Source: Candidatus Nomurabacteria bacterium
GTDB lineage: Bacteria > Patescibacteriota > Minisyncoccia > Phycocordibacterales > UBA9973
DNA length: 46,278 nucleotides
Assembly (NCBI GenBank): GCA_023267195.1
Contig: JAHFNT010000005.1
Coordinates: forward strand, 80,875-127,152
Direction of reading: 5' to 3'
Positions within the stretch are counted from its first letter, which is position 1, and each line of letters begins with the position of its first letter. A program made the position numbers and the translations under genes. Positions 5,662-34,184 of the stretch are shown here, piece by piece. The notes below the pieces were generated by a model that saw only the letters and a program-made list of their open reading frames with translations, searched no databases and had not been told where the DNA came from.

Positions 5662-5701
5662 AACTTACATTATATACTAAGAGTCAAATTTTTAGCTATA
5701 T

Positions 5702-6883
5702 TTAATTTTTCTTTCTCCTCAAAAAGGCTGGAACAGCGCTCCAGTCATCGCCGTCATCTTCTATCACTTCCTCTTTTTTACTATCCATTTTTTTTACGAA
5801 ATCATTACTGCCCATCATGTTGCCGCCCTGAAGACTATTGTGTATTTCTTTTTTTATGGTAGCTGGACTTTCATCTTTTACTAGGGTTCCTGTCTGGGTG
5901 CCACTAAAGAGGCTTTTTCTAGGCATATCGGCTGGGAATGAAGTAGCGATGACTGTCACTTTTATTTCTCCTTTTTTTAATTTTTCATCATGAATGGTAC
6001 CGAAAATCACTTTTGCTTCTTTGTCTATTGATTCAGTTATTATTTTTGCTGCTTCCTGAATTTCATTGATAGTCAAATCATCTCCGCCTGAGATTGCAAA
6101 GAGTACTCCCTTGGCGCCGTGGATAGAAATTTCAAGGAGCGGTGAGTTGATAGCTGCCAAAGCTGCTTTTTCAGCTCGTTTTTCACCAGAAGCAGTTCCG
6201 ATACCCATAAGGGCGCTGCCAGCATTTGCCATGACAGCTTTGATGTCAGCGAAATCTACGTTTATGACACCAGGGGTAGTAATGAGGTCAGAAATCCCTT
6301 CTACTGCTTGTCTTAAAACATCATCACATCTCACAAAGGCATCTTTGAAGTTTGTATTTTTTTCTGCCAATTGAAGCAATTTATCGTTTGGAATTATGAT
6401 TATGGCATCCACTTCTTTAGCCAAATCCTCGATTCCTTTTTCTGCTATCTTCATCCTGTGGCTTCCTTCAAAGAAGAAAGGTTTAGTGGTTACTGCTACG
6501 GTCAAGATGCCTTGTTCTCTCGCGGCCCTGGCGACGATAGGAGCAGCTCCAGTGCCGGTGCCTCCACCCATTCCACAGGCAAGAAAAATCATATCTGCGC
6601 CCTTCACTACATCCTGAATTTCAGATTTAGTTTCTTCAGCTGCCTTTTTCCCAACTTCTGGATCCATCCCCGCGCCGAGGCCTTTAGTCAAATTTTTTCC
6701 TATATGAATTTTCTTCTCTGCGAGAGAGTGATGCAGGTCTTGCGTATCGGTATTCATACAGATAAAGGTGACACCTTTGACCTTAGTATTTATCATGTGG
6801 TTGACTGCATTCTTTCCTGAACCCCCAATCCCAATGACCATAATTCTGGCAAAACTCTCTATTTCCTGGTTTATTTTTGGCAT
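5702..6883 (-). CDS. ftsZ: Cell division GTPase FtsZ
   Basis: GGGTGTGAAP tubulin signature, NTD..L motif, C-terminal conserved peptide (VPAFLRRK). Confidence 0.95.
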   Translation of the reverse strand: MPKINQEIESFARIMVIGIGGSGKNAVNHMINTKVKGVTFICMNTDTQDLHHSLAEKKIHIGKNLTKGLGAGMDPEVGKKAAEETKSEIQDVVKGADMIFLACGMGGGTGTGAAPIVARAAREQGILTVAVTTKPFFFEGSHRMKIAEKGIEDLAKEVDAIIIIPNDKLLQLAEKNTNFKDAFVRCDDVLRQAVEGISDLITTPGVINVDFADIKAVMANAGSALMGIGTASGEKRAEKAALAAINSPLLEISIHGAKGVLFAISGGDDLTINEIQEAAKIITESIDKEAKVIFGTIHDEKLKKGEIKVTVIATSFPADMPRKSLFSGTQTGTLVKDESPATIKKEIHNSLQGGNMMGSNDFVKKMDSKKEEVIEDDGDDWSAVPAFLRRKKN

Positions 6884-6953
6884 AATTGATTATTAAAAGA
6901 ATTATCTTATATAGATAACACACTACCACCGGCACAAATAAATGTAAAGTAAA

Positions 6954-8117
6954 CTATGGCATCAGCTGTTTTAGGCTTGATTTTATTGTATTTTTAAGAT
7001 CTTTGAAAATATTTCCGAGTGGGCCTTCTCCATATCCCATATTATCCTTGCCTGCTGTTAGAAGTCCTAGGACAGTAAACCAAGAAGAGTCACGCAGCTT
7101 GGTTTTGTTGTTGCCAAAAATTTCAGTTGTTCCTAGGCTTGATGGGAGTTTTAGGATTGATTTTGAAAGTTCCACTAACATGGGAGTGTCTGCTCCGCCA
7201 CCTACAAACACGATGCCGGCAGGCAAGAGTTCTGATCTTTTTATTTTTTTTAAATTATTTTCTATTGACTCAAAAATATCACACAGGCGCGCCTCGATTA
7301 TTTCTTCCAGTTTTTTTCTTGAAAAATCTTCCGTAATATTTTCCAGTTTCAAATCTTCTGCTTTCTCTAATGGAATTTTAAAACCTAAAGCAATATCATT
7401 AGTGATGTCTGTTCCCCCGATAGAAAAAGTGTAAATAGATACTAGTGATCCATTTTCAAAAACAGAAATAGAAGTGGTCTCTGCTCCGATGTTGACCAGG
7501 GCTACCCCGACTATTTTTTGTCTTTCAGACAAAACAATATTACTGACGGCTATCGGGGAGGCTATTACATCTATCGTTTCTACTCCAGCTTCCGCGATTA
7601 CTCCGAGCAAATCTTCCAAATGGACAATAGAATAAGTTACAAAAAGGGTTTTTGCCTCAAGTTTGGTTCCACGCATACCCTCCAGGCGGCCTAGCACTTC
7701 TTTGCCGTCAAGCCGGAAAGAAATAGGGAACATGTGGATGATTTTTTTATTACCCAAACTCAAGTTTTCTTCGCAATCTGCCAAAGCTTTGTTTATATCG
7801 AGAGTCGTAACCTCGCCGTCTGCTTTAGAGACGATTGTTCCTCCGGGGCTGATCTCTCCGCGTAAAGTTGTGCCCGAAAGGGAAACGAAAGCGCGTTTTA
7901 TTTTTAGACCAGAAGTTTTTTCTGCTTGCGCGACTGCATTTCTGACTGAAGTGGCGGCCAATGTTTCATTGACAACATAACCGTGTCGAACTCCAAGCGT
8001 TTGGCTTTCGCCTACACCAATAATCTTAGGATTTTTTTCTCCTTTTAGAAATTCTCCGACCACGACTCGCGTCATGGACGATCCTACGTCTATCCCGACT
8101 GAAATATTTCTGATCAT
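6954..8117 (-). CDS. ftsA: Cell division protein FtsA (actin-like ATPase)
   Basis: N-terminal GIDVGSS phosphate-1 motif and GGGADT adenosine motif. Located immediately upstream of ftsZ. Confidence 0.9.
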   Translation of the reverse strand: MIRNISVGIDVGSSMTRVVVGEFLKGEKNPKIIGVGESQTLGVRHGYVVNETLAATSVRNAVAQAEKTSGLKIKRAFVSLSGTTLRGEISPGGTIVSKADGEVTTLDINKALADCEENLSLGNKKIIHMFPISFRLDGKEVLGRLEGMRGTKLEAKTLFVTYSIVHLEDLLGVIAEAGVETIDVIASPIAVSNIVLSERQKIVGVALVNIGAETTSISVFENGSLVSIYTFSIGGTDITNDIALGFKIPLEKAEDLKLENITEDFSRKKLEEIIEARLCDIFESIENNLKKIKRSELLPAGIVFVGGGADTPMLVELSKSILKLPSSLGTTEIFGNNKTKLRDSSWFTVLGLLTAGKDNMGYGEGPLGNIFKDLKNTIKSSLKQLMP

Positions 8118-8433
8118 ATTTTTTTTCCGCTTCTTCCATTGTACTACTATGATCGAGACCTTTCAAATGAAGCAGGCCGTGGATAACTAAAAAGCCGAGC
8201 AGTTCCGGGAAAGTTCTATTAAATTTTTTTAATTCTTTCTTGATTACTGCCTTACACAACACAAGCTCGCCGGAATTTTTTGATAAAGCAAAAGACAACA
8301 CATTTGTTGGTTTGTTTTTACCCCGCCATTTTTTATTTAATTCTTGGGATTTTTTGAGAGAGACGTAGGCAATAGAAAGCTCGTAGTTTTTGCCTAAGAT
8401 TTCATTCTTTATTCTAGAAAAAATCTTCTCCAT
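8026..8433 (-). CDS. ybeY: Endoribonuclease YbeY (rRNA maturation factor)
   Basis: HGLLHLKGLDH zinc-binding motif (H.x3.H.x5.H). The 3' end overlaps ftsA by 92 nt. Confidence 0.8.
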   Translation of the reverse strand: MEKIFSRIKNEILGKNYELSIAYVSLKKSQELNKKWRGKNKPTNVLSFALSKNSGELVLCKAVIKKELKKFNRTFPELLGFLVIHGLLHLKGLDHSSTMEEAEKKYDQKYFSRDRRRIVHDASRGRRISKRRKKS

Positions 8434-8435
8434 TT

Positions 8436-8669
8436 TTACTTAGTCACCATCTTGCCGAGTTTTTTGAGTTTTTCTATTTCTTGCCTGCGCGCCATTCGCT
8501 TGAGCGCACTCTTTTTTACTTTTAGTTTTGATTCTACTCGGACATTATAACGAGCGCCTTTGACTTTGCGAATAATTCCGGATTCTTGAATTCTGCGAGA
8601 AAAGCGGCGCAAGACACTCGCGTTGTTTTCGTTTGGATTTTTCTTAACTTCAATAACTGTTTTTGCCAT
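8436..8669 (-). CDS. rpsU: 30S ribosomal protein S21
   Basis: 77-aa basic protein. The segment LRRFSRRIQESGIIRKVKGARYNVRVESK fits the S21 pattern. Confidence 0.8.
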   Translation of the reverse strand: MAKTVIEVKKNPNENNASVLRRFSRRIQESGIIRKVKGARYNVRVESKLKVKKSALKRMARRQEIEKLKKLGKMVTK

Positions 8670-8751
8670 ACCTTGTAGACTAACATATAAAAGATTTTTT
8701 GCAAACCGACAACCGAAGGTAAGGAGGTACTGAGCGCAGTGAATGTATTTG

Positions 8752-8779
8752 TTGACAGAATAATAATTGTGTATAGAAT
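8752..8779 (+). promoter_or_regulatory. Sigma-70-like promoter: TTGACA (8752-8757), 16-nt spacer, TAGAAT (8774-8779)
   Basis: A perfect -35 and a 5/6 -10 at 16-nt spacing, directly upstream of the GC-rich unit. The predicted start is near 8786. Confidence 0.5.
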
Positions 8780-8799
8780 GTTTTTAGGAGGTTCTCGTT

Positions 8800-8994
8800 A
8801 TGAGTGAACAGCAGCATCCCGGACTGCGCCATTTGGCGCAGTGGAGTCCGGGGCAAAGCTTCGTTGCCCCGGAGAGCGAGGCGTTCAGGCAAGACAGCAC
8901 CGCTTCCCCGGGGGAAGGCAAGCTTCCCCCGGTGGCGCCCAAGGCGGAGGCGGCAAGCTGGAGTCCCAAACCCAACTACTCCGGCCAGGAGTAG
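8800..8994 (+). CDS. Candidate 64-aa Pro/Ser/Ala/Glu-rich small protein (coding status uncertain)
   Basis: AGGAGG at 8786-8791 lies 8 nt before the ATG at 8800. Third codon positions are mostly G/C in this frame. However, the product is low complexity and the region folds extensively. Confidence 0.3.
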   Translation: MSEQQHPGLRHLAQWSPGQSFVAPESEAFRQDSTASPGEGKLPPVAPKAEAASWSPKPNYSGQE

Positions 8995-9045
8995 CCACCC
9001 CGATCCCCGCGGGCTAGCCCAGAGGCTAAGCCCATCCCACGTTTC

Positions 9046-9086
9046 GGCCGTGGCCACCTCGCGGTGGTCCACGGCCAATTTTTATT
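9046..9086 (+). terminator. Rho-independent terminator
   Basis: GGCCGTGGCCACC-TCGC-GGTGG(T)CCACGGCC forms 13 bp with one bulge, followed by AATTTTTATT. Confidence 0.75.
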
Positions 9087-9189
9087 GACTTTTTTATAAA
9101 AAAATATAACATTGAAGAGTATAAGCCCCGTTAGAAATCTAATAGCGGGCTTTAGTCGTTTTATTATAGTATTTAAATTTGGCAATGGA

Positions 9190-9657
9190 ATGAATCAAGC
9201 AGGAAATTATATAACCGAAGAAAAAAGACAGGCTCTCTTGGCGGAATTGAAAGATCTAAAAGGCCCAAAAAGAAAAGAACTCTTGGAAGCTTTGGCGTAT
9301 GCGAAATCTTTGGGTGATCTGTCTGAAAATGCGGAGTATCATCAGGCGCGAGAAGAGCAGGGCAAGCTCGAAGCGCGGATCGCGAAAATTGAACAAATAT
9401 TGCAAGACTCAGAAACAGTAAAAGGCGGCGGGGGTGATATAATTGAAATAGGTTCCAAGGTAGTTGTGCAAAAAGATGGCACCAAAGAAACTAAAAATTA
9501 TGTTATAGTTGGATCTGAGGAGGCGAGCATGGCTGAAGGAAAAATCTCCAATAAATCTCCCTTTGGCAAGGCGCTTTTCAACAAGAAGAAAGGAGATGAG
9601 GTCTCTTTCAAAACTCCGGGTGGTGTAGTCAATTATAAAATCGTAAATGTTTCTTAA
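9190..9657 (+). CDS. greA: Transcription elongation factor GreA
   Basis: The track ORF starts at 9112. I use the ATG at 9190 (MNQAGNYITEEKRQALLAEL...). SLGDLSENAEYHQAREEQ is the GreA coiled-coil signature. Confidence 0.9.
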   Translation: MNQAGNYITEEKRQALLAELKDLKGPKRKELLEALAYAKSLGDLSENAEYHQAREEQGKLEARIAKIEQILQDSETVKGGGGDIIEIGSKVVVQKDGTKETKNYVIVGSEEASMAEGKISNKSPFGKALFNKKKGDEVSFKTPGGVVNYKIVNVS

Positions 9658-9695
9658 TTTCCGCCAAAGGCGGATCAGCCTCTGGCTGAAAAATT

Positions 9696-11156
9696 ATGTC
9701 TTCAATTGATGAAATTCGGGACACTAGAATAAAAAAACTAAAACTCTTACAAGACAGAGGCATGAATCCGTATCCAGCTGATTCAAAAAGAGAACTTACT
9801 TTGAAAGAGGCAGTTGATAATTTTGAAACCTTAGAAAAAAATAAAGAAAATAAATGGATTGCCGGCCGCATCATATCCATTCGCGGGCAAGGCGCTATCG
9901 TTTTTATTACTTTGAATGATGGTACTGGAACTTTTCAAGGATTACTGAAAAAAGATATTTTGGGAAACGAGAAATTTGATTTCTGGAGTGAAGTCGTAGA
10001 TATTGGAGATTTTGTCGAAGTGGAGGGTTCATTTTTTACGACCAATAGGGGAGAAAAAACACTGGAAGTCAGAGATTGGCGCATGCTCTCGAAGAGCTTG
10101 CGTCCTTTACCGGAAAAGTGGCATGGACTTGTAGACATTGAAGAAAGATTTCGCAAAAGATATCTGGATATTTTGATGAATCCGGAAATCAAAGAGCTTC
10201 TTTTGAAAAAATCAAAATTTTGGGAAACCACGCGCAATTTTATGAAGGAACATGGGTTTTTAGAAGTGGAAACTCCGACTTTGGAAGTCACGACTGGCGG
10301 AGCGGAAGCTACTCCGTTTAAGACTTATAATGAAGATTTTAAACTCCCGCTTTATTTGCGTATTTCGATCGGTGAGCTTTGGCAGAAAAGGTTGATGTCC
10401 GCAGGTTTTCCTAAAACTTTTGAGATAGGACGCGCTTATCGGAATGAAGGTTCTGACGCCAATCACTTGCAAGAATTTACAAATATGGAATTTTATTGGG
10501 CTTATGCAAATTACAAAGACGGCATGAAATTGGTAGAAGAGCTTTATAAAAAAATAGCGCAAGAAGTTTTCGGCACTTTGCAATTTGAAACACGTGGGCA
10601 TAAGTTTGATTTTGGTGGCAAATGGGAATGCATTGATTATCGCGAGACGGTCAAAAAGGAAACTGGTGTAGACATTTTGAATACGACTTACGAAGAAGTA
10701 AAAGATAAGTTGGAAGATTTAAAAGTTTCCTATGATGGTAATACTATGGAAAGACTAGTAGATACGCTTTGGAAATATTGTCGAAGAAAAATTTCTGGTC
10801 CGGTATTTTTGATTGGGCATCCAAAACTTGTTTCTCCACTATCAAAATCAATGCCGGAGAATCCTGAATTGACCGAAAGATTTCAGATTATCATTGCTGG
10901 TTCAGAAGTAGGCAACGGTTTTTCTGAATTAAATGATCCGATTGATCAAGCCGAAAGATTTGAAACCCAACAAGAATTAATCAAAGCAGGGGATAAAGAA
11001 GCAATGATGCCAGATTTAGAATTTGTGGAAATGTTGGAACATGGTATGCCACCTACTTGCGGTTTTGGCTTTGGAGAAATGCTCTTTGCTTTCTTGGCAG
11101 ATAAACCGATTCGCGAAACTCAAATGTTTCCTTTGATGCGACCGACTAAAGAGTAA
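9696..11156 (+). CDS. lysS: Lysine--tRNA ligase (class II)
   Basis: 486 aa. Has an OB-fold N-terminus, class II motifs (FLEVETP, YRNEG, GFGFGE...) and LysRS-typical length. Confidence 0.95.
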   Translation: MSSIDEIRDTRIKKLKLLQDRGMNPYPADSKRELTLKEAVDNFETLEKNKENKWIAGRIISIRGQGAIVFITLNDGTGTFQGLLKKDILGNEKFDFWSEVVDIGDFVEVEGSFFTTNRGEKTLEVRDWRMLSKSLRPLPEKWHGLVDIEERFRKRYLDILMNPEIKELLLKKSKFWETTRNFMKEHGFLEVETPTLEVTTGGAEATPFKTYNEDFKLPLYLRISIGELWQKRLMSAGFPKTFEIGRAYRNEGSDANHLQEFTNMEFYWAYANYKDGMKLVEELYKKIAQEVFGTLQFETRGHKFDFGGKWECIDYRETVKKETGVDILNTTYEEVKDKLEDLKVSYDGNTMERLVDTLWKYCRRKISGPVFLIGHPKLVSPLSKSMPENPELTERFQIIIAGSEVGNGFSELNDPIDQAERFETQQELIKAGDKEAMMPDLEFVEMLEHGMPPTCGFGFGEMLFAFLADKPIRETQMFPLMRPTKE

Positions 11157-11172
11157 AAAATTTTAGAAACGA

Positions 11173-11200
11173 CGATGCCCCGAGCGCGAGGCATCGGGGC
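11173..11200 (-). terminator. GC hairpin followed by a T-rich tract on the minus strand
   Basis: CGATGCC/GGCATCG or GCCCCGA/TCGGGGC alternative 7-bp stems. On the minus strand it is followed by CGTCGTTTCTAAAATTTTTT. Confidence 0.5.
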
Positions 11201-11226
11201 GGCTTGATGAAGAGCGTCAGGTTGGG

Positions 11227-11358
11227 TTATTGAACATTCTCCTCGTTTTCTTCTGTTCTGTCGGTGGTGATCATGAGGTAAACCTGCCACAGAGCATAGA
11301 CGGCGAGGGGGATGAAAGGAAGGAAAGCGATCGCAAGGACCACTGCGAATACTTTCAT
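11227..11358 (-). CDS. Candidate 43-aa single-TM peptide (below the ORF-track size cut-off)
   Basis: Hand translation MKVFAVVLAIAFLPFIPLAVYALWQVYLMITTDRTEENEENVQ, stop TAA at 11229-11227. AAGGAG lies 8 nt upstream of the ATG. Confidence 0.45.
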   Translation of the reverse strand: MKVFAVVLAIAFLPFIPLAVYALWQVYLMITTDRTEENEENVQ

Positions 11359-11550
11359 TGTTCAATCTCCTTCTTCAAACATTTAAACATTTACTAAATA
11401 TTTTGTCCAATTTTTGGTTTTTGAGTTTTCAATATATAAAAATTATACCCATAAAAAACAACAACCCCGAATGCGGAGCAGTCGAGGAGCTTTTTGCTTT
11501 TTTTATTGTGTTTGATTGTATTGTAAAGAAAGAACTTTGTTGGGGCGGCG

Positions 11551-11580
11551 CCCCCGCTCGGGCTTCCGCCCGAGCGGGGG
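11551..11580 (-). terminator. Perfect 13-bp GC hairpin downstream of the two-gene cassette
   Basis: CCCCCGCTCGGGC-TTCC-GCCCGAGCGGGGG. There is no immediate U-run on the minus strand, so it may act as a stabiliser or processing site rather than a classic terminator. Confidence 0.45.
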
Positions 11581-11596
11581 CAGATGGGGGTGAGAG

Positions 11597-11809
11597 CTAC
11601 TCGTCCACGAGAAGCTTCACGGCGAAGCGAGCCTTCTTCATCTTGCTGAAGTCTTCACCATTCCCGCCGTGGATGGTGAAGATGTTCCGGCCCGGAAGAA
11701 CGTAGTTGACATTCTTCCCGAGTAGTGAGGAGAGGGCACTGGCGATTTCTCTTGTGCTCATACTCCTCGGCCCGCTTAGGACCTGGATTGAGGGGTTGGT
11801 TTTTTTCAT
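11597..11809 (-). CDS. Hypothetical 70-aa protein (second gene of the GC-rich cassette)
   Basis: AGGAGA lies 4 nt before the ATG. The ORF has a sensible composition but I recognise no family. Confidence 0.5.
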   Translation of the reverse strand: MKKTNPSIQVLSGPRSMSTREIASALSSLLGKNVNYVLPGRNIFTIHGGNGEDFSKMKKARFAVKLLVDE

Positions 11810-11824
11810 GTTGTCTCCTATCTC

Positions 11825-12067
11825 TCACTTGGGCTTGAGGTAGTCGGAGTGGAGCATGAGAGGCGATTCACCACCGCTGTTGTTCAACACGGAGCCCCCT
11901 CTCTCCACGGTCAGTAGCCAGCATCCTTTGATTGGTTCTAGTGATCTGACGGAGCGTATGACGAACGGGTTTTCGCCATACAGTTTCGCAAGGCTCGCAA
12001 CCAAGCGTGACCACCGTTTCTTGTCCCACTCTACGACCTGACCCACCTGGGGTTCTGAAATGAACAT
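11825..12067 (-). CDS. Hypothetical 80-aa protein (first gene of the GC-rich cassette)
   Basis: AAGGAGGG lies 8 nt before the ATG, and the promoter boxes are upstream. I recognise no family. Confidence 0.5.
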   Translation of the reverse strand: MFISEPQVGQVVEWDKKRWSRLVASLAKLYGENPFVIRSVRSLEPIKGCWLLTVERGGSVLNNSGGESPLMLHSDYLKPK

Positions 12068-12094
12068 TCTCTTCGCCCTCCTTCTTCGGAAGAA

Positions 12095-12123
12095 TTATTA
12101 CCATGTTTAACCATTTTAGTCAA
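12095..12123 (-). promoter_or_regulatory. Sigma-70-like promoter for the cassette: TTGACT, 17-nt spacer, TAATAA (minus strand)
   Basis: The minus strand reads TTGACTaaaatggttaaacatggTAATAA. The -35 is at 12123-12118 and the -10 at 12100-12095. Confidence 0.5.
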
Positions 12124-12186
12124 TAAAACTTTATTTTTTAATAAAACGAAAGTTATCCACAGTCTGGGCTTGGCGTTATTTTATAA

Positions 12187-12231
12187 GTGGAATACAATAT
12201 ATATGAAGTGGGAAAAGGTGGGAAAAGTGTT
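12187..12231 (+). promoter_or_regulatory. Putative MraZ operator: GTGG(G/A)/GTGTT direct repeats on a roughly 10-nt register
   Basis: GTGGA at 12187, GTGGG at 12208, GTGGG at 12218 and GTGTT at 12227, just upstream of mraZ. Confidence 0.5.
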
Positions 12232-12254
12232 AATAATAATTTTTCAGAAATTTT

Positions 12255-12698
12255 ATGTTAATCGGCGAATACATTCATACCATAGATGAAAAAAATAGAA
12301 TTTCTTTGCCGGTAAAATTTCGCAAGGAACTTGGTAAGAAAATTATTATTACACCCGGACTGGATTCTTGTCTTTTTATTTTTACAACCAAAGAATGGGC
12401 CAAAGTCAGCAAAAGACTTTCTGATACCGAATCTGATTTGTCTTTTTTGAAAGCTGATAAGAGAAGTTTTAACAGATTTATGTTTGGTCGGGCGACGGAT
12501 GTGGAGGTGGATTCCATTGGCAGGATATTAATACCAGATTTTTTGAAAGACAGAATTGGTTTGAAAAATTCCGCAGCGATCATAGGAGTGGAAGATAGGG
12601 TTGAAATCTGGAACGATAAGACATGGTCGGAGTATAAGGAAGTAGTGGAAAAGCAGGCCGATCAATTGGCGGAAAAGCTTGGAAACGAAAAGAAATAA
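12255..12698 (+). CDS. mraZ: Transcriptional regulator MraZ
   Basis: Duplicated SpoVT/AbrB-like halves with DEKNRISLP and DSIGRILIP motifs. Confidence 0.95.
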   Translation: MLIGEYIHTIDEKNRISLPVKFRKELGKKIIITPGLDSCLFIFTTKEWAKVSKRLSDTESDLSFLKADKRSFNRFMFGRATDVEVDSIGRILIPDFLKDRIGLKNSAAIIGVEDRVEIWNDKTWSEYKEVVEKQADQLAEKLGNEKK

Positions 12699-12699
12699 G

Positions 12700-13593
12700 A
12701 TGGCCTTGCCTGTAGGACAACAGCCGAAGGAGAGTGTTCACAAGACAGTTCTTTTAAATGAAACAATAGATGGTCTTGATTTAACAGGGAATCCAATTGT
12801 TCTCGATGCTACTTTCGGAGGTGGCGGACATAGCATGGAGATACTGAGAAGATTTGGGAATGCAAAAATAATTGCGTTTGATCAGGATAAAAGCGCCTGG
12901 AGAGAAAACGATAGACGAATTTCTTTCCAGAATGAAAATTTCGCTCAAATAAATAAAATTTTAAAAAGCGAAAAAGTTGATGGAATTATTTTTGATTTAG
13001 GTTTGAGTTCAGATCAATTAGAGAATTCTGGACGAGGATTTTCTTTCCTGAAAGATGAGCCTTTGCTCATGACCATGAAAGAAAATCCTCTTTCGGAAGA
13101 TATTACGGCAGGAGAAATCGTTAATACTTGGGGAGAGAAAAGTTTGGCAGATATTATCTACGGCTACGGAGAAGAGAGGTATGCAAGGAGGATAGCGAAA
13201 GCGATTGTGGAGGCTAGGCAAAAGGGAGAAATTAAAACCACTTTTGATTTAGTAAAAATAATAAGTGAGGCAGTGCCAGCAGTTTACAGAAGGGGGAGAT
13301 TGCACTTCGCGACGAGAACCTTCCAGTCTCTAAGAATAGCGGTCAACGATGAATTGCGAGTTTTGCAAAAGGGGCTCGAAGAAGGGTTTAAAGCGTTGAA
13401 AGCAGGGGGCAGGATGTCAGTAATTTCTTTTCACAGCCTAGAAGATAGAGTAGTTAAGAAATTTTACAAAGCACTAGAGAAAGAGAAAAAAGCAATTTTA
13501 ATAAATAAGAAACCAATTATAGCGAGCGCAGAAGAAATAAAAAATAATCCCCGAGCGAGAAGCGCAAAGTTAAGAATTTTGGAAAAAATTTAA
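12700..13593 (+). CDS. rsmH: 16S rRNA (cytosine1402-N4)-methyltransferase RsmH
   Basis: The track ORF starts at 12679 inside mraZ. The ATG at 12700 follows the mraZ stop by 1 nt. Motifs include H.TVLL.E, DATFGGGGHS, DLG.SS.Q and SFHSLEDR. Confidence 0.9.
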   Translation: MALPVGQQPKESVHKTVLLNETIDGLDLTGNPIVLDATFGGGGHSMEILRRFGNAKIIAFDQDKSAWRENDRRISFQNENFAQINKILKSEKVDGIIFDLGLSSDQLENSGRGFSFLKDEPLLMTMKENPLSEDITAGEIVNTWGEKSLADIIYGYGEERYARRIAKAIVEARQKGEIKTTFDLVKIISEAVPAVYRRGRLHFATRTFQSLRIAVNDELRVLQKGLEEGFKALKAGGRMSVISFHSLEDRVVKKFYKALEKEKKAILINKKPIIASAEEIKNNPRARSAKLRILEKI

Positions 13594-13598
13594 AAGAT

Positions 13599-13955
13599 AT
13601 GAGACAAGCAGCATTACAACTGAAGACTCGCATAGAAAACGTAAATATTATGAATAATAATATTGAAATACAGAGTGTTATTTTGAAGGTAATGCTGTCT
13701 CTGATAGCAATGCTCGCACTTTGGTATGTACTTATTTTAGGAAATATGGTCTTTAATATTGTGGAAAGAAATGCTTTGGAAAAAAGGGCAGTATCACTTT
13801 CAAATGAAGTTGGCGATTTGGAGCTTTCCTATTTATCTATTTCCAAGGATGTGGATATTTCAATGTCAGCTTCTATGGGATTTAAAGAAGCAAAGGTGAT
13901 CTTCGCCACCCGTAAATCTCTTGGTACTCTAAAACTTGCTCACAATGAAATCTAG
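13599..13955 (+). CDS. Single-TM protein in the FtsL position of the dcw cluster
   Basis: One TM segment (VMLSLIAMLALWYVLILG) followed by a short coiled region. The call rests on position between rsmH and ftsI. The start could be the internal ATG at 13650. Confidence 0.45.
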   Translation: MRQAALQLKTRIENVNIMNNNIEIQSVILKVMLSLIAMLALWYVLILGNMVFNIVERNALEKRAVSLSNEVGDLELSYLSISKDVDISMSASMGFKEAKVIFATRKSLGTLKLAHNEI

Positions 13956-15660
13956 TTTTTTGCTCAGATCCAGAATAATTCTCTTGTTTGTCATAGTTTT
14001 CGCAGGTATCCTTCTGGTGAAACTTTTTTTTGTGCAGATTGTAGAGAAAGATACCTATAGAGAAGCGGCCAATCGCCAATATGCCACGCCTTCTACCAAT
14101 ATTTATGAACGGGGCACCATTTATTTCGAAACCAAAGATGGAAACTTGGTTTCGGCCGCTACGCAGACTTCAGGATTTAAGTTGGCCATTAATCCAGAGA
14201 AAATTACAGACATAGAATCCACTTACCAAAAATTATCGGAAGTAATAGCAATTGACCGTGATAATTTTACCAAAAAAGCACAACAGAAAAATGATCCTTA
14301 CGAAGAAATCACCAGTCATTTATCCAAGGCGGAGGCGGATGCTATTGCCGGTCTGAAGATTTCAGGTGTAAACGTGTATAAGGAAAAGTGGCGTTTTTAT
14401 CCCGGAGGAAGCATGGCTTCGCATGAGCTTGGTTTTGTGGGCTATAAGGGCGACCAATTGGGTGGGCGTTATGGTCTGGAGAGACAATATGAGTCTTATC
14501 TTTCGAGAGATGCGAATAATCCATATGTAAATTTTTTTGCTGAAGTTTTTTCTAATATACATGAAACTTTATTTGAAGACGAGACAAAGGAGGGAAACAT
14601 TGTCACCACCATTGAACCGCAAGTGCAAGGTTTTCTAGAGAAGAAATTGGCAGAAGTTGAAGAAAAATATAAAACTGACTCGATCGGCGGCATAATCATG
14701 AATCCAAGCGATGGTTCTATCTATGCCATGTCTTCCTCTCCATCATTTGACCCGAATAATTTTTCTCAAGTGAAAAATATTTCAGTTTTTTCGAATCCAT
14801 TGGTGGAAAATGTTCTTGAATTTGGATCTGTGGTGAAGCCTCTGGTAATGGCGGCAGCCCTCGATGCTGGGGTTGTAACAGCGGATACCACCTACAACGA
14901 CAAAGGCTCGGTAGTTGTGGAGAAAAAAGAAATATTCAATTTTGATAAACAAGGCAGAGGTCCTGGTACAACCATGCAAGAAGTATTGAGCCAGTCGCTC
15001 AATACTGGCATGGTATTTGTAGAGCAGAAATTAGGCAAAGAGAAATTGCGCGATTATTTGCTTGGTTTTGGCATTAAGGAGAAGACAGGTATAGATTTGC
15101 CCAACGAAACTGCAGGCTTGGTGTCGGGAATATTAAAAAGTCCACGAGAAATAGAATATGCGAATGCTGCTTTTGGTCAGGGTATTGCTCTTACTCCAGT
15201 GGGGCTAGTGAGGGCGCTTGCCTCGCTTGGTAATGGGGGGAATTTAGTAGTTCCTCATGTTGCGAAAAAAATAAAATACAACGATGGCACCTCTAAGGAT
15301 CTTGTTTACGCGACAACGCTGACGAAGATTGCCAAGGTAACTTCTGAGGAAATTACGCGAATGTTAGTAAATGTTATGGACAAAGGTTTATCCGGAGGAA
15401 CAAAAAAGTTGGATCATTTTAGCGTGGCAGTAAAAACTGGTACGGCGCAAGTTGCGGACAACACTACTGGAGGCTATTATACAGACAGGCACAATCATTC
15501 TTTTTTTGGTTATTTTCCCGCCTATGATCCGAAATTTATAGTTTTTCTTTACGCTATAAATCCGAAAGGTGTACCCTATGCCGCGACGACTTGGGCCGAC
15601 CCTTTTTTAGATATCACGAAATTTTTGTTAAATTATTATAATATTCCCCCAGATAGATAA
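13945..15660 (+). CDS. ftsI: Penicillin-binding protein 2/3 class transpeptidase
   Basis: N-terminal TM anchor, then SVVK (SxxK), SLN (SxN) and KTGT motifs in order. The track start at 13936 is TTG. The ATG is at 13945. Confidence 0.9.
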   Translation: MKSSFLLRSRIILLFVIVFAGILLVKLFFVQIVEKDTYREAANRQYATPSTNIYERGTIYFETKDGNLVSAATQTSGFKLAINPEKITDIESTYQKLSEVIAIDRDNFTKKAQQKNDPYEEITSHLSKAEADAIAGLKISGVNVYKEKWRFYPGGSMASHELGFVGYKGDQLGGRYGLERQYESYLSRDANNPYVNFFAEVFSNIHETLFEDETKEGNIVTTIEPQVQGFLEKKLAEVEEKYKTDSIGGIIMNPSDGSIYAMSSSPSFDPNNFSQVKNISVFSNPLVENVLEFGSVVKPLVMAAALDAGVVTADTTYNDKGSVVVEKKEIFNFDKQGRGPGTTMQEVLSQSLNTGMVFVEQKLGKEKLRDYLLGFGIKEKTGIDLPNETAGLVSGILKSPREIEYANAAFGQGIALTPVGLVRALASLGNGGNLVVPHVAKKIKYNDGTSKDLVYATTLTKIAKVTSEEITRMLVNVMDKGLSGGTKKLDHFSVAVKTGTAQVADNTTGGYYTDRHNHSFFGYFPAYDPKFIVFLYAINPKGVPYAATTWADPFLDITKFLLNYYNIPPDR

Positions 15661-15679
15661 TTAATTTAAGAATTAAAAA

Positions 15680-17005
15680 ATGCGTATATTTTTTAAAAAA
15701 ATAATAACCTATATTCTAAAAATAGAATCCGAACTTGTACTATATAAATACAAACCGAAAATTGTCGCTATTACTGGGTCGGTCGGCAAGACTTCTACTA
15801 AAGATGCGGTCTATGCGGTGCTTTCAAAAATTTCTTATGTGCGAAAAAGCGAAAAAAGTTTTAATAGCGAGATAGGTTTGCCACTTACTATTTTAGGTGT
15901 CCCCAACGGGTGGAACCACCCATTTATTTGGTTACTTAATATTTTAAAGGGTTTTTGGCTTTTTCTTTGGCCCCACAAATACCCTAAATGGCTTGTGCTT
16001 GAAGTTGGAATCGGCAAGCCAGGTGACATGAAAGCCACTGCCTTATGGCTTAAGACCGATGCGGTAATAATTACCACTATTGGCGAAACCCCGGTTCATA
16101 TTGAATTTTTCAATTCTCGCCGGCATCTCATAGAAGAAAAAATGGAACTTATAAAAACTTTAAAAAAGGACGGTTTCTTAATTTTGAATAGAGATGATGA
16201 AGCAGTGCTTGAAATGAAGAACAAAAGCAAAAATCTTTTCACCACTTATGGTTTTGTAGAAGGAGCGAATATTTTAGCTTCCGGTGATAGTATTTTTTAC
16301 AACAATGACGGTGAGCCGGAGGGGATAGTTTTTAGGATTGACCACGAAGGAAAAAGTTTGCCAGTGGTCATAGATGGAGTGTTTGGGCGCAATCACGTCT
16401 ATGCTTCTTTAGCTGCCTTGGCTCTTGCGTCAGCTTTGAAGTTAAATATGCTCGAAGCTGTAGAGGCGCTAAAGAGCTATGAGATTCCTCTCGGGCGGAT
16501 GCGACTTCTTCGAGGAATAGAGAATTCTTTAATTATTGATGATACCTACAATTCTTCTCCTTCGGCGTGCGAAGCTGCGCTAAAAACTCTAAAAGAAATA
16601 AAATGTAAAGAGCCGAAGGGACGAAAGATCGCCATTTTGGGAGATATGCTCGAACTTGGGCGTAATACTATGGAGGCGCATAAAAATATTGGCAAAATTG
16701 CCAAAGAAAATGCCGATGTGCTTGTCGTAGTTGGTCAAAGAGCGAAGGGAATAAAAGAAGGGGCCATCGAAGCAGGAATGCAAGAGGGAAAATCACCAGA
16801 TAGCAGGACCGGCTTTTTTGAATTTTTGGATTCGTCTGAGGCGGGAAATTTTATAAAAACTTTTGTGCGAAAAGGGGATATTGTTTTGGTGAAAGGTTCA
16901 CAGGGTATGCGTATGGAGCGTACCGTAGAGGCAATACTCCTTGATCAAGCAAATAAAAAAAATCTTCTCGTCCGGCAGGATGCTGAATGGCTGAAAAAGA
17001 AATAA
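15680..17005 (+). CDS. murF: UDP-N-acetylmuramoyl-tripeptide--D-alanyl-D-alanine ligase
   Basis: ITGSVGKTSTKD P-loop, Mur ligase central and C-terminal domain pattern, dcw context. Confidence 0.85.
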   Translation: MRIFFKKIITYILKIESELVLYKYKPKIVAITGSVGKTSTKDAVYAVLSKISYVRKSEKSFNSEIGLPLTILGVPNGWNHPFIWLLNILKGFWLFLWPHKYPKWLVLEVGIGKPGDMKATALWLKTDAVIITTIGETPVHIEFFNSRRHLIEEKMELIKTLKKDGFLILNRDDEAVLEMKNKSKNLFTTYGFVEGANILASGDSIFYNNDGEPEGIVFRIDHEGKSLPVVIDGVFGRNHVYASLAALALASALKLNMLEAVEALKSYEIPLGRMRLLRGIENSLIIDDTYNSSPSACEAALKTLKEIKCKEPKGRKIAILGDMLELGRNTMEAHKNIGKIAKENADVLVVVGQRAKGIKEGAIEAGMQEGKSPDSRTGFFEFLDSSEAGNFIKTFVRKGDIVLVKGSQGMRMERTVEAILLDQANKKNLLVRQDAEWLKKK

Positions 17006-17017
17006 AGCTTCTCAATT

Positions 17018-17455
17018 TTATTGGCTAAAAAATATTGGGATTTCGAGCGCGTCATCGTGCTCGGGCAGTCCAGAAGGGTTATCCTTTTTCAAAATCAAAG
17101 AGCCGTTATTTTTATATATTGGAGTTTTAAATTCTAGGGTAGCAGTAAATGGCACAAAATTTTCTGTCATCCATTCACCTTGTGCTGTGGCGAAACTTTC
17201 CGCAATGATGAGCCCATCCCAATCAACAAGAAATATCGGGAAACTGCCTTCGAAGAACCACCCTCCTCTTGCCACACCAGAAATTTGGAGCGGACTTTTT
17301 ATTGTTTCATTCGGCCGCGGTGTACTAAGGCGGATAAGATCTATTTTCTCTAATTCATTACCAAAATATTCTCTATTTTCTTGCTTAGCCTGCCAAAGAA
17401 AGCCAAATGAAGCAACAATCATAATAACTATTATTAAGAGTAATATTTTCCTCAT
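17018..17455 (-). CDS. Secreted/anchored Gmad2 immunoglobulin-like domain protein
   Basis: An N-terminal TM or signal segment. The segment [27 protein letters not shown]...[10 protein letters not shown] resembles the Gmad2 Ig-like domain. Confidence 0.65.
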
Positions 17456-17461
17456 CTATTT

Positions 17462-17470
17462 ATTTTAACA
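17462..17470 (-). promoter_or_regulatory. Extended -10 box TGTTAAAAT ending 6 nt before the ATG at 17455
   Basis: Reverse complement of 17462-17470. No Shine-Dalgarno between the box and the start. Confidence 0.45.
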
Positions 17471-17483
17471 CAAGCATTATTTA

Positions 17484-17492
17484 TGCTAAAAT
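17484..17492 (+). promoter_or_regulatory. Extended -10 box TGCTAAAAT ending 7 nt before the msrB ATG at 17500
   Basis: Read directly from the sequence. No Shine-Dalgarno. Confidence 0.45.
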
Positions 17493-17499
17493 ATCCAGC

Positions 17500-17865
17500 A
17501 TGAATGATGTGAATGAATTAACTGAGGAGGAAAAAAGGGTGATTATAGATAAAGGAACCGAAGCGCCTTTTACCGGTGAATACGTAAACAACAAAGAGAC
17601 AGGCTTGTATGTCTGCCGGCAATGTGGGGCTCCGCTTTATAATTCTAAAGATAAATTTGAGTCAACCTGTGGTTGGCCATCTTTTGATGACGAGATTCTT
17701 GGAGCGGTACATAAAAGTCTTGATGCGGATGGAATGCGTACGGAAATAACTTGCGCTAAATGTGGCGGGCATCTAGGGCATTTGTTTGTAGGTGAGGGCT
17801 TAACCGAAAAGAATTTGCGTCATTGCGTGAATTCAATTTCGATGAAATTTATACCAGGAAAATAA
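17500..17865 (+). CDS. msrB: Peptide-methionine (R)-S-oxide reductase MsrB
   Basis: Two CxxC zinc pairs ([18 protein letters not shown]), GWPSF and the catalytic RHCVNS. Confidence 0.9.
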
Positions 17866-17866
17866 A

Positions 17867-18352
17867 ATGATTAAAAAAATAGTATTAGCGGGTGGGTGTT
17901 TTTGGGGTTTGCAGGATTTAATTAGGAAACAACCGGGTGTGGTGAAGACCATTGTTGGTTATACTGGCGGAAGTGTGGAGAATCCAACCTATCACAATCA
18001 TGAAGGCCATGCGGAAGCGGTGGAGATAGAATACGACACTGAAAAAACTTCTTATAAAAAACTACTCGATTTCTTTTTTCAGATTCACAACCCTACGACG
18101 TTGAACCAACAAGGGAACGATGTTGGTACTTCTTATCGTTCGGCTATTTTTTATGGCAACGAAGAGGAGAAACAAGAAGCAGAGAATTTTATAAAAATTG
18201 TAAATGATTCCAAGCGTTGGTCAAATCCGGTAGTGACGAGCCTTGAGCCACTTGGTAGGTTTTATCCCGCAGAAGAATATCATCAGGATTATCTTGTAAA
18301 AAATCCAGGCGGTTACACCTGCCACGCTATTTATTTTGAGAGTTATTTGTAA
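17867..18352 (+). CDS. msrA: Peptide-methionine (S)-S-oxide reductase MsrA
   Basis: GGCFWG active-site motif and a YHQDYL C-terminal motif. Confidence 0.9.
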
Positions 18353-18377
18353 TAATTTTTCCAGAAAAACAGAAACC

Positions 18378-18397
18378 TCGCGCCATGCGGGGCGCGA
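18378..18397 (-). terminator. Rho-independent terminator (minus strand)
   Basis: TCGCGCC-(6 nt)-GGCGCGA stem. The minus strand continues GGTTTCTGTTTTTCTGG (18377-18361). Confidence 0.6.
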
Positions 18398-18442
18398 AGC
18401 TCCCGTCGGTTGCGAGGTTGATGGTTTGTGACCTGCGGTTCG

Positions 18443-18814
18443 TTACACGAACCGCAGGTAGTTGGCGGGGGTGATCGCGTCTTCTGGATCTAGGCTCTTT
18501 TTGAGAACCCTGACCCTGAGGAATTTCCCCTCTGCCTTTCGGCAAAGGGATTCAAAGTCTGGGTGGTTACTCTGGACTTGCACTAGCTCCCTTCTTTTCC
18601 AGAACAGAAGAGAGCTTCGCACCAACTCCATGGTTAGCCATCCAGTTTCCGAAAATAGGAGGTGGTCGATACGCCATTCTCCACCTAATCGACGGGCTTT
18701 CTTCACCTCTTCCTTGACCTTCGGGGCCAAGAACCGAGCCGCAAGTATGATTACGGCGAAAAAGAAGAGGTAGACGGAGACCATGGCTGCCAGAAAGATT
18801 GTTGCAGGCGACAT
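18443..18814 (-). CDS. Hypothetical 123-aa protein with one N-terminal TM segment (GC-rich insert)
   Basis: The track ORF extends to 18862. I prefer the ATG at 18814 (MSPATIFLAAMVSVYLFFFAVIILA...) because GAGGTG lies 4 nt upstream. I recognise no family. Confidence 0.5.
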   Translation of the reverse strand: MSPATIFLAAMVSVYLFFFAVIILAARFLAPKVKEEVKKARRLGGEWRIDHLLFSETGWLTMELVRSSLLFWKRRELVQVQSNHPDFESLCRKAEGKFLRVRVLKKSLDPEDAITPANYLRFV

Positions 18815-18932
18815 TTTACACCTCGCTATTCTTAAAGGTATAGCTACCAATTTTGAATCCAAATATATTTCAACATACTTTGGTAAAAATACAAGTATAG
18901 ATTTAGAATTTTTGCTTTACAATATAATTCAT

Positions 18933-19331
18933 ATGGAAAATCCAGGGACAATTTTATTTATTACACCTAAAAGTAATGCTTCGCAAGACCCAGTTATCGA
19001 TGAAGCAACTAAAAAAATGACTGCGGCTGTTCGAAAAAGCAAACTTGGCCGCCTATATCGCCGTCCAGATGAGATTCGCGGCATACACAACTGCGTATGT
19101 GGAATAATGAGCGCTCCCTGTGATTATATTTTGCCCGATGGCGCAAGAACAAATTCTTTGTGTGTACATTACTTGGCCTATCACCATGACGAAGTACCCA
19201 AAAAAGAAATGGAAAAAGTGCTTAATCTTCAGTATGGAGAAATTGAACCAACGGCAGAAGAAATGCGGGGTACTATAAAGACAGAAAATACCGAAGAATT
19301 AAAATACAGACCAAGATTTAAAATTCGTTAA
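18933..19331 (+). CDS. Hypothetical Cys/His-rich protein (132 aa)
   Basis: The track ORF starts at 18783 and overlaps the divergent gene. The ATG at 18933 (MENPGTILF...) follows TACAAT/TATAAT boxes. HNCVCG...PCDY...CVHYLAYHH suggests a metal site. Confidence 0.4.
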   Translation: MENPGTILFITPKSNASQDPVIDEATKKMTAAVRKSKLGRLYRRPDEIRGIHNCVCGIMSAPCDYILPDGARTNSLCVHYLAYHHDEVPKKEMEKVLNLQYGEIEPTAEEMRGTIKTENTEELKYRPRFKIR

Positions 19332-19341
19332 TCTGAATTTG

Positions 19342-19413
19342 TGACCCTACAGAGAATCGAACTCTGATTTGATCCTTGAGAAGGATCCGTCCTAGCCGTT
19401 AGACGATAGGGCC
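19342..19413 (-). tRNA. tRNA-Glu (anticodon CUC), 72 nt
   Basis: The reverse complement GGCCCTA-TC-GTCT..GGAC-G-GATCC-TTCTCAA-GGATC-AAAT-CAGAG-TTCGATT-CTCTG-TAGGGTC-A has the same acceptor stem as the UUC isoacceptor. Confidence 0.85.
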
Positions 19414-19466
19414 AATAGGAAAAATATAGCATTTTTAATAAAAAATCAAAAACTAAAATTAATTTT

Positions 19467-20450
19467 TTATTCTTCTACCTTTGGCTTTTCTACTTCCAGC
19501 AAAGAAATTTCTGGTGAAGCGCCGGCAATTTTTAGCACATCTTTGTCAATCTTTTTTAATTCTTTGTTGGAGGAATTGTAATGATTTACGACAGTGCCAA
19601 GCGCATTGCCGAGTTTGGTGTGGTATTCATCATAAGATTTCAAATGCTTACCCAGGTCCTCAACTTTTTTAATTATTTCTTTAGCGGACTCTTCTATCTT
19701 GAAGGCCTTAAAGCCATAAAGCACTGATTGTAAATACGCCATAAAAGTTGTAGGAGAAATTATGATAACCTTTTTCTCGTTGTAAGCATAGTCTATTAAA
19801 TTTCTCGTATTAACTTTTATTGATCCGACTTCATTGACAAGCAAATCGTAATATATCGCTTCTGCTGGAATATACATAAAAGCGAAAGGGAGAGTGTTTT
19901 CTTCCGGGCGAACATATTTTGCTGTTTCATCAATACGCTTTTTTAAATCATTTTTAAATTCTTTTTCAAGTTCTTCGCGTTGACGATCATCCATGGCGTG
20001 CACGACACGATCGTAATTATCTAAAGAAAATTTTGCGTCAATTGGAATTATGCCTTCCTTAGTTATTATGATTGCATCTACAACTTCTTTATTTTTAAAT
20101 TCATATTGCATTTTATATTGGCCAGGAGCCAGAGTATTTGAAAGAATAAGTTCGAGTGATGCTTCACCCCAATTACCCCGCTGTTTTTGGTGTTTCAAAG
20201 TTTTTTCCAAATCGCCCAATTTATCAGCGATGGCTATGAATTGCCTGGTGGCTTCATTTGTTTTAGTCTGTTCACGGGCTACACCTATCAAGTTTTTATT
20301 TACTTCACGGGTAAGCTCCGCCATTTGTTGCTGGAGCATCAATAAAGCCGGGCTGTCTTCTTTTTCTTCTTCTTTCTTTTTACCAAAGATAAAATAGGCA
20401 ATTATTCCGCCGATCAGGAATGCTATTATGATAAATAAGGTATTGTCCAT
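19467..20450 (-). CDS. rmuC: DNA recombination protein RmuC
   Basis: N-terminal TM, long coiled coil, RGNWGEASLELIL motif and a C-terminal nuclease-like domain with the usual RmuC layout. Confidence 0.75.
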   Translation of the reverse strand: MDNTLFIIIAFLIGGIIAYFIFGKKKEEEKEDSPALLMLQQQMAELTREVNKNLIGVAREQTKTNEATRQFIAIADKLGDLEKTLKHQKQRGNWGEASLELILSNTLAPGQYKMQYEFKNKEVVDAIIITKEGIIPIDAKFSLDNYDRVVHAMDDRQREELEKEFKNDLKKRIDETAKYVRPEENTLPFAFMYIPAEAIYYDLLVNEVGSIKVNTRNLIDYAYNEKKVIIISPTTFMAYLQSVLYGFKAFKIEESAKEIIKKVEDLGKHLKSYDEYHTKLGNALGTVVNHYNSSNKELKKIDKDVLKIAGASPEISLLEVEKPKVEE

Positions 20451-33955: not shown

Positions 33956-34177
<222 letters not shown>

Positions 34178-34184
34178 TATTTTT

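Follow-up and report, generated by a model that had tools for sequence, protein, structure and literature searches.

The DNA analysed here (the window) is a 46,278-nucleotide (nt) stretch of the chromosome of a Candidatus Nomurabacteria bacterium (Paceibacteria/Parcubacteria, a group of the Candidate Phyla Radiation, CPR), with a GC content of about 39%. By LysS, its closest species-level relative has 89% amino-acid identity, and a metagenome scan for closer strains returned no contig above 86% LysS identity. Three gaps between its genes hold short G+C-rich inserts, which we refer to as islands 1, 2 and 3 and which are the subject of this study: island 1 lies in the rpsU|greA gap, island 2 in lysS|mraZ and island 3 in murF|rmuC. 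The gene order ybeY-rpsU | greA-lysS | mraZ-rsmH-ftsL-pbp-murF is kept across sister loci. An earlier note on this sequence had marked the three inserts, and GC calculated in 300-nt windows bears it out, with values of 0.57 at 8701-9000, 0.48-0.53 at 11401-12000 and 0.51 at 18301-18600 against a background of about 0.39; where other 150-nt stretches are as GC-rich, the sequence belongs to a tRNA or a native gene, such as the Gly/Ala-rich atpE (33969-34178). Two details in that description need adjusting. The cassettes number four rather than three, as island 2 consists of two units; and the placement in conserved housekeeping slots holds for rpsU|greA and lysS|mraZ, while island 3 occupies a variable murF|rmuC region beside tRNA-Glu, a gap of 150 nt to 3.7 kb depending on the sister species.

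The islands carry five short open reading frames (ORFs), i1_64, i2_43, i2_80, i2_70 and i3_123, which we compared with the 47 native genes of the window, seeking a Shine-Dalgarno (SD) core between positions -18 and -4. We found that all five island ORFs have an SD site 4-8 nt ahead of the ATG, whereas none of the native genes does (0/47), and that GC at third codon positions (GC3) is 0.59-0.77 in the island ORFs versus 0.20-0.41 in the native genes. The five SD strings and their spacings had been quoted in the earlier note, and all are exact on reading the sequence; as no ORF has an ATG earlier than the SD-led one, the author of that note had little freedom in picking starts. Overall GC is 0.48-0.66 in the island ORFs and 0.61-0.80 in the terminator segments, compared with 0.36-0.41 in flanking genes. 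Coding potential was assessed from the periodicity of GC at the three codon positions (GC1, GC2 and GC3) in the annotated frame, with significance obtained by permutation. All five ORFs show the coding-type order GC3>GC1>GC2 (P from 0.006 to 5e-5), and for i2_70, i2_80 and i3_123 the annotated frame is the sole open one of six.

The four units share a common plan: an A+T-rich sigma-70-like promoter, an SD site, one or two short ORFs, and GC hairpin terminators of 10-14 bp. Promoters were predicted by scanning positions 8400-19500 with a sigma-70-like consensus in which 12 positions were scored, and both promoters and terminators are located at the unit borders. Three of the outer borders given in the earlier note coincide with a promoter-like site. 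G+C-richness is confined to the part of each unit that runs from SD to terminator. The earlier note had described independently expressed modules with a shared architecture. Predicted promoters and terminators of their own at the borders are consistent with the first half of this description; the shared architecture, taken singly, is that of an ordinary leadered bacterial transcription unit.

Such an abrupt change of composition at the island borders, in sequence of metagenomic source, could in principle mean that the assembly is chimeric or that contaminant fragments have been joined to the Nomurabacteria sequence. We consider this very unlikely. Three contigs from Logan (SRR14366796) and from the ENA MEGAHIT assembly (ERZ27279977) match the window perfectly over 5024-12380, 8028-9690 and 11449-13010, and a fourth public contig runs from murF past island 3, so that ybeY-rpsU-island 1-greA, lysS-island 2-mraZ and murF-msrA-island 3 are each bridged at 100% identity. 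As these contigs come from different assemblers, the junctions between island and native DNA are reproduced, which speaks against the chimera at island borders that the earlier note had allowed for. Moreover, every border lies precisely between genes, the promoters and terminators there are coherent, and analogous cassettes are present in many independent metagenome-assembled genomes.

Island 1 is on the forward strand and was delimited by empty-site comparison with sister species, which puts the entire insert at 8707-9076, flanked by the rpsU and greA promoters. In the 102 sister rpsU|greA slots compared, the divergent rpsU and greA promoters stand back to back, with a median gap of 98 nt. 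The empty site is seen in sister locus L009 as 'ttttttgcaaatacccaattttttattgactttt'; in the window, 'gcaaa' and 'tttttattgac' are separated by about 365 additional bases, and the insertion point is exactly between the two divergent promoters. The predicted island promoter, TTGACA-16-TAGAAT (8752-8779; 29% GC), matches the consensus at 11/12 positions and is the best site in the scanned region. It is followed by the SD AGGAGG (8786-8791), 8 nt from the ATG at 8800, and by the 64-aa ORF i1_64 (8800-8994; GC1/2/3 = 0.65/0.55/0.77, P = 0.006), whose product is predicted to be disordered and of low complexity. An intrinsic terminator at 9046-9084, found both by folding and by a terminator scan (9065-9077), consists of a 13-bp GC stem with one bulge (9046-9076) and a T-run that runs into the greA -35 region. 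In this gap, the sole piece of sequence conserved in sister loci is the greA promoter, at 9075-9109. Direct repeats of 10 nt around the island promoter were dismissed as chance.

For island 1 above all, a different explanation has to be weighed, in which the unit is a structured non-coding RNA (a small RNA or a cluster of palindromes) made from the strong promoter, and its SD-led ORF is incidental or the transcript has a dual function. The transcript folds with a z-score of -5.0, computed (as for all transcripts here) against dinucleotide shuffles; i1_64 contains two perfect 10-bp hairpins (8847-8873 and 8908-8932) that lie 60 nt apart; its antisense in-register frame is likewise open; and where an A+T-rich genome has a G+C-rich stretch, the classical explanation is an RNA gene. 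Sister locus L007 has an unrelated unit at this site, whose peptide is likewise disordered and whose fold has z = -3.7. Protein-coding status is thus weakest for i1_64 among the five ORFs. However, its SD-led frame has significant codon-position periodicity, and the strength of the fold does not discriminate RNA from coding sequence, because islands 2 and 3, which are clearly coding, have folds that are no weaker (z = -5.0 and -6.4; all units but that of i2_43 were folded). Rfam searches at gathering and at permissive thresholds (E ≤10 for island 1 and ≤1 for the other two) gave no family, the best island match scoring 26 bits against a gathering threshold of 90, and ARAGORN found no transfer-messenger RNA in the islands. 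We therefore regard a non-coding RNA as unlikely.

Island 2 lies on the reverse strand and comprises two units: i2_43, with its own leader and terminator, and a bicistron, i2_80-i2_70, which ends in two hairpins. The 43-aa ORF i2_43 (11227-11358; GC1/2/3 = 0.57/0.27/0.59, P = 0.001) is preceded by AAGGAG (11367-11372), 8 nt from the ATG at 11358, and is predicted to encode a single transmembrane helix (Kyte-Doolittle 2.54, residues 3-21) with an acidic tail. Only a TATAAT box is readable as its promoter. Its terminator, a 10-bp stem with a T-rich tail recovered by the terminator scan (11173-11196), stands where sister species have an A+T-rich lysS terminator. The bicistron is headed by the predicted promoter TTGACT-18-AATAAT (12094-12123; 10/12 consensus). 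Its first gene, the 80-aa i2_80 (11825-12067; GC3 0.67, P = 0.001), has the SD AAGGAGGG (12076-12083) 8 nt from the ATG at 12067, and its second, the 70-aa i2_70 (11597-11809; GC3 0.73, P = 5e-5), has AGGAGA (11814-11819) 4 nt from the ATG at 11809. Tandem hairpins follow at 11464-11581, namely a perfect 14-bp stem (11550-11581) and a weaker hairpin with a T-run (11464-11479). A 15-nt repeat common to the 3' end of i2_43 and the start of i2_80 was dismissed as chance. The native block upstream of mraZ (a DnaA box and GTGGGAAA repeats) is conserved, begins just right of the bicistron promoter, and always bounds the variable lysS|mraZ slot on the right. Within it, a perfect DnaA box, TTATCCACA (12153-12161), and a tandem GTGGGAAAAG repeat (12208-12227) are kept in nearly all sister loci; the tandem repeat looks like an MraZ operator.

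The single-sequence AlphaFold2 model of i2_70 is a confident one (predicted confidence, pLDDT, of 75), with a beta-alpha-beta-beta-alpha-beta, ferredoxin-like fold. Foldseek with this model gave no PDB match at E <0.001 and a generic ferredoxin-like resemblance only, and the model is without the metal-binding motif of the HMA domains on which it superimposes. For i2_80 the AlphaFold2 model is alpha+beta with moderate confidence (pLDDT 63), and Foldseek returned nothing.

Island 3, also on the reverse strand, is headed by the weakest of the promoter calls, TTGTAA-17-TATACT (18894-18922; 9/12 consensus), from which a 5' untranslated region (5'UTR) of about 70 nt leads to the SD GAGGTG (18819-18824), 4 nt from the ATG at 18814. 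The 123-aa ORF i3_123 (18443-18814; sole open frame, P = 2e-4) has a predicted N-terminal transmembrane helix (Kyte-Doolittle 2.84, residues 6-24). Its terminators, at 18361-18459, comprise a perfect 13-bp hairpin (18431-18459) that overlaps the stop codon, then a second hairpin at about 18369-18406 with a T-run. Hairpins had been reported in the earlier note for islands 1, 2 and 3, and all three are real: the perfect 14-bp and 13-bp stems and, in island 1, the 13-bp stem with one bulge and a T-run. The terminator segment 18365-18417 is about 78% identical over 54 nt to positions 10758-10811 of sister locus L153, the 3' end of an unrelated G+C-rich minus-strand cassette in an equivalent place, and the two segments show differences inside the stem. 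The similarity is a hint that 3' modules may be common to different cassettes, or that recombination may substitute one cassette for another.

The murF|rmuC gap of the window is occupied at 17018-19413 by a block made up of gmad2, msrB, msrA, i3_123, an A+T-rich orphan gene (orph132) and tRNA-Glu. The gmad2, msrB, msrA and orph132 genes around island 3 are of native composition and mostly absent from sister species; as msrAB and gmad2 are native in composition but patchy in distribution, we regard them as belonging to an older accessory region. The ENA call stretches the orphan gene to an ATG at 18783 (18783-19331, forward strand, 182 aa), which makes it overlap i3_123 by 32 nt. An alternative start for the orphan gene is a leaderless one at 18933, behind a TATAAT box.

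To place the islands in a wider context, we examined the corresponding slots in sister species. These are usually empty, and a minority hold unrelated cassettes of the same build. The comparison is one that the earlier note had proposed, and its outcome is that the cassettes of the window are absent and the slots are mostly empty or differently filled. In the nearest relatives (89% LysS identity) the slot is empty and there is no orthologue of the cassettes. Seven sister rpsU|greA slots exceed 300 nt. That of L007 holds, in the same place and orientation as island 1, the unrelated unit mentioned above: TTGACA-17-TAGAAT, AAGGAG-7-ATG, a 61-aa G+C-rich ORF, and two GC hairpins with a T-run. That of L045 contains a G+C-rich 160-aa membrane ORF behind GGGGAGG, and those of L012 and L057 contain A+T-rich genes. 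Across 110 lysS|mraZ slots the gap varies from 145 to about 3,500 nt; a GC3-rich ORF is present in 12 of them, with a strong SD in nine of the 12. We also observed that the rpsU|greA gaps of L019, L024, L030 and (inverted) L027 have in common an element of about 70 nt, 'ctttcttcggcatacgcaatatta...caggttggagtgcgagccgtgagaaag', in either orientation, which could be a small mobile element or a non-coding RNA.

The same contrast is found family-wide. In a survey of 133 non-redundant sister loci plus the window (1.95 Mb), with ORFs of at least 200 aa as the native set, a strong SD precedes 40% of the 42 small ORFs whose GC3 is at least 0.25 above genome GC, versus 1.7% of the 1,095 long ORFs. Thus, the near-absence of SD sites from native genes, as the earlier note had it, extends beyond the window. 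A hairpin of -20 kcal/mol or stronger lies within 110 nt downstream of 90% of 21 sister cassettes versus 8% of native genes, and a promoter scoring at least 10/12 was found for 36% of the GC3-rich small ORFs versus 2.8% of random windows. Upstream of these ORFs, the DNA exceeds the genome in A+T content. When 44 GC-rich SD-led ORFs drawn from all loci were clustered, the only groups obtained were duplicates of identical genomes. Among ten sister-cassette proteins searched against Pfam and PHROGs, one has a peptidoglycan-binding (endolysin-type) domain, and the others are without a convincing match.

Searches with the island ORFs were likewise negative. Pfam, NCBIfam, PHROGs and PADLOC returned nothing significant for any of the five, in keeping with the earlier note, which had assigned them to no recognised family, and no homologue of the island proteins or DNA was found in about 160 sister loci. 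In a word-indexed search of 5.8 billion proteins, i2_80 and i2_70 matched only themselves and i3_123 matched nothing. An exhaustive phmmer search of 1.84 billion representatives with i3_123 gave no true homologue; its sole match, an RTX-repeat protein, is spurious, the score being the sum of ten weak repeats. Viral contigs yielded only 10-residue chance matches to i2_80 and i3_123, and neither tblastn of i3_123 against phage records nor blastn of the i2_80/i2_70 operon DNA against plasmid records returned anything.

The neighbours of the islands (ybeY, rpsU, greA, lysS, mraZ, rsmH, murF, msrAB and rmuC) include no transposase domain, integrase, phage protein or PHROG match among those scanned. 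This bears on whether the islands belong to a known mobile or addiction class, that is, integron-type cassettes (clusters of attC sites lacking integron-integrases, CALIN) or toxin-antitoxin modules, with i2_43 as a type I toxin and i2_80/i2_70 as a type II pair. Short ORFs followed by hairpins would suit the former; a 43-aa single-helix membrane peptide behind a long leader is typical of type I toxins, and i2_80 with i2_70 forms a compact two-gene operon encoding proteins of 70-80 aa. However, the RYYYAAC...GTTRRRY pair is absent from every island (the sole pair in the window is inside msrA, at 17982-18106), the hairpins are perfect terminators with T-runs, each unit has a promoter of its own, neither integrase nor transposase is nearby, no toxin, antitoxin or defence match was obtained from Pfam, NCBIfam or PADLOC, and the fold of i2_70 is generically ferredoxin-like. 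Membership of such a class is accordingly improbable.

Taken together, we read the islands as four horizontally acquired, autonomous, moron-like mini-transcription units that sit in permissive intergenic gaps and recur at hotspots, with a probability of roughly 0.6. Their foreign origin is inferred from GC3 and SD. The acquisition from an SD-using, higher-GC source that the earlier note had put forward is upheld as regards foreign composition and absence from the slots in more than 100 sister species; no donor was identified, and the source, being deduced from composition, is consistent with these data rather than proven. Insertion would have occurred by illegitimate recombination into gaps where it is harmless, as no mobility signature was found. 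Once in place, a near-consensus sigma-70-type promoter in A+T-rich DNA would start a short leader bearing a strong SD site, one or two short G+C-rich ORFs would be translated from it, and the very stable GC hairpins would end transcription and insulate the neighbouring core operons. To judge from these predicted signals, the units would be expressed. The products are predicted to be lineage-specific, two of them membrane-anchored (i2_43 and i3_123), two small and globular (i2_70 and i2_80) and one disordered (i1_64); by analogy with phage morons, they may have an accessory role, such as membrane-level exclusion or host interaction.

Several observations weigh against this interpretation. The cassette promoters and 5'UTRs have a GC of only 0.26-0.38 and are as A+T-rich as native intergenic DNA, which is odd if whole units were imported from a genome of 55-65% GC; the promoters may have evolved in place, or a mobile pool adapted to transcription in Nomurabacteria may be the source of the cassettes. 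At the islands, searches for terminal repeats, target duplications, attC-like cores and a recombinase were all negative, and the flanking repeats are short, A+T-rich and at chance level; the earlier note had likewise seen neither inverted terminal repeats nor target-site duplications nor a recombinase. Had the genes been captured from a well-sampled member of the same community, a donor or homologue would be expected in the data searched, and none was found. The ENA pipeline did not call i3_123, and the ORF itself was not returned from the protein collection, while i1_64, as described above, is of low complexity and full of perfect hairpins. Finally, the SD sites may be non-functional in this host, because the anti-SD motif is reported for just 48% of Parcubacteria (Tsurumaki et al. 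2022, PMC9297842). We sought the 3' end of the 16S rRNA in the window and in 2.3 Mb of sister loci, and there is no 16S gene in this sequence. In native genes, SD-like pentamers are mildly depleted relative to codon shuffles (0.76-0.92), and reverse-complement controls are depleted equally.

Some of these points would also fit if the ORFs were resident, fast-evolving, lineage-specific genes made GC-rich by selection (for mRNA stability or structure, or for regulated SD-dependent translation) or by GC-biased gene conversion at recombination hotspots. Promoter and leader are then host-like as expected, no donor is needed, the recurrence of the build in many species suggests a systematic process, all tested transcripts are unusually structured, and the slots are recombination-prone variable regions. 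However, the GC3 excess amounts to 0.25-0.4 within 200-600 nt, with sharp borders and untouched neighbours, which is far beyond the known effects of gene conversion; selection on mRNA structure does not predict GC3>GC1>GC2; and the nearest relatives, as noted above, have an empty slot where an orthologue would be expected. A resident origin therefore seems unlikely.

Horizontally acquired units of this kind have a close parallel in phage morons. Morons of the HK97/HK022 type were reportedly described by Juhala and Hendrix in 2000. Morons have their own promoter and factor-independent terminator, deviate in GC, and stand out as additional DNA where gene order is otherwise conserved (Cumby et al. 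2012, PMC3594210). Each of these attributes has its counterpart in the islands: predicted promoters of their own, with sites matching at 11/12, 10/12 and 9/12 positions in three units and a TATAAT box alone for i2_43; GC hairpins of 10-14 bp at the end of every unit, with T-runs after 9046-9084, 11173-11196, 11464-11479 and about 18369-18406; ORF composition well above that of flanking genes; and the status of extra DNA when set against the 102 and 110 sister slots with conserved gene order. Morons also often encode small membrane proteins, and i2_43 and i3_123 are predicted to be membrane-anchored. Unlike morons, the islands lie in a cellular chromosome between housekeeping operons, with no phage genes or PHROG matches nearby, and they differ from the host in translation-initiation signal as well. 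They therefore fall outside the strict moron class, as their setting is not a phage or prophage. The claim in the earlier note that no described element class matches is nevertheless too strong, given that the build is that of the phage moron.

Other classes correspond less well. The islands resemble atypical ORFans, or genomic islets, in being short, lineage-restricted, without homologues and of deviant GC, and in occupying variable spots in a syntenic genome; the amelioration framework for such compositionally atypical acquired genes is said to be that of Lawrence and Ochman. Classical ORFans are usually more A+T-rich than their host, whereas the island ORFs are 13-27 points more G+C-rich, carry uniformly strong expression signals and recur at the same few hotspots across the family. 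The likeness to integron cassettes and CALIN extends to a short ORF followed by a hairpin and to variable content at a fixed location; the islands have neither attC cores nor integrase, their hairpins are plain terminators, they have their own promoters, and they are scattered rather than arrayed. Without terminal inverted repeats, target-site duplication or transposase, they also differ from insertion sequences and miniature inverted-repeat transposable elements. The host itself resembles known SD-poor regimes (anti-SD loss in part of Parcubacteria, PMC9297842, and non-SD or leaderless initiation of the Bacteroidota type) in that its genes have no SD and a -10 box lies close to the ATG in operon-first genes, which agrees with reports that the SD helix is little used or unused in this group. 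That description (PMC9297842) covers the host regime and not an embedded minority of SD-led, G+C-rich genes.

We conclude that the feature is real and clean, and that compositionally foreign, moron-like add-on genes explain it in outline. As a known concept suffices to that extent, the islands are not a new kind of system. They go beyond the textbook case in their uniform strong-signal build, in their recurrence at the same hotspots across a CPR family, and in the clash with the SD-less initiation of the host.

If the islands are indeed foreign cassettes, then streamlined CPR genomes still gain genes, at a few tolerated gaps between core operons and as self-insulated units. The contrast in initiation provides a concrete test of whether the ribosome of an SD-less lineage, possibly without an anti-SD, can translate SD-led messages. 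A gene caller trained on A+T-rich host sequence can overlook genes of this kind, and i3_123 is a case in point. In time, cassette composition might also give a clue to the phages or host organisms with which these uncultivated bacteria are associated. A bolder and more doubtful proposal is that Nomurabacteria are seeded with expression-ready micro-cassettes from a dedicated, unsampled pool (a G+C-rich phage or plasmid, or host-organism DNA taken up by competence) that land repeatedly at rpsU|greA, lysS|mraZ and murF|rmuC, each bringing a near-consensus promoter, a strong SD, a G+C-rich ORFan and a hyper-stable terminator. If that were so, then in a host whose own genes start leaderless or without an SD, and which may even be devoid of the anti-SD, the cassettes would constitute a gene class that is separately translated or silent, and a sequence record of a partner organism.

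Some further observations concern native genes of the window. In the greA leader (9113-9175), a conserved hairpin and a 'tagtcgttt' tail lie between the greA promoter and start, and are present also in L045 (about 5650-5700), L052 and L065; this may be a putative cis-regulatory leader. In most other sister species greA is leaderless. Many native first genes of operons (for example 4702-5661 on the reverse strand, and those at 27017, 28782, 29492 and 23181) are laid out as leaderless genes, with a TATAAT-like box 5-12 nt ahead of the start, and internal native genes have A-rich upstream regions without an SD. In the atp operon, G+C-rich hairpins are located at 34180-34262, between atpE and the next gene; the latter has GAGGAGGA 17 nt upstream of its start, too distant for SD action.

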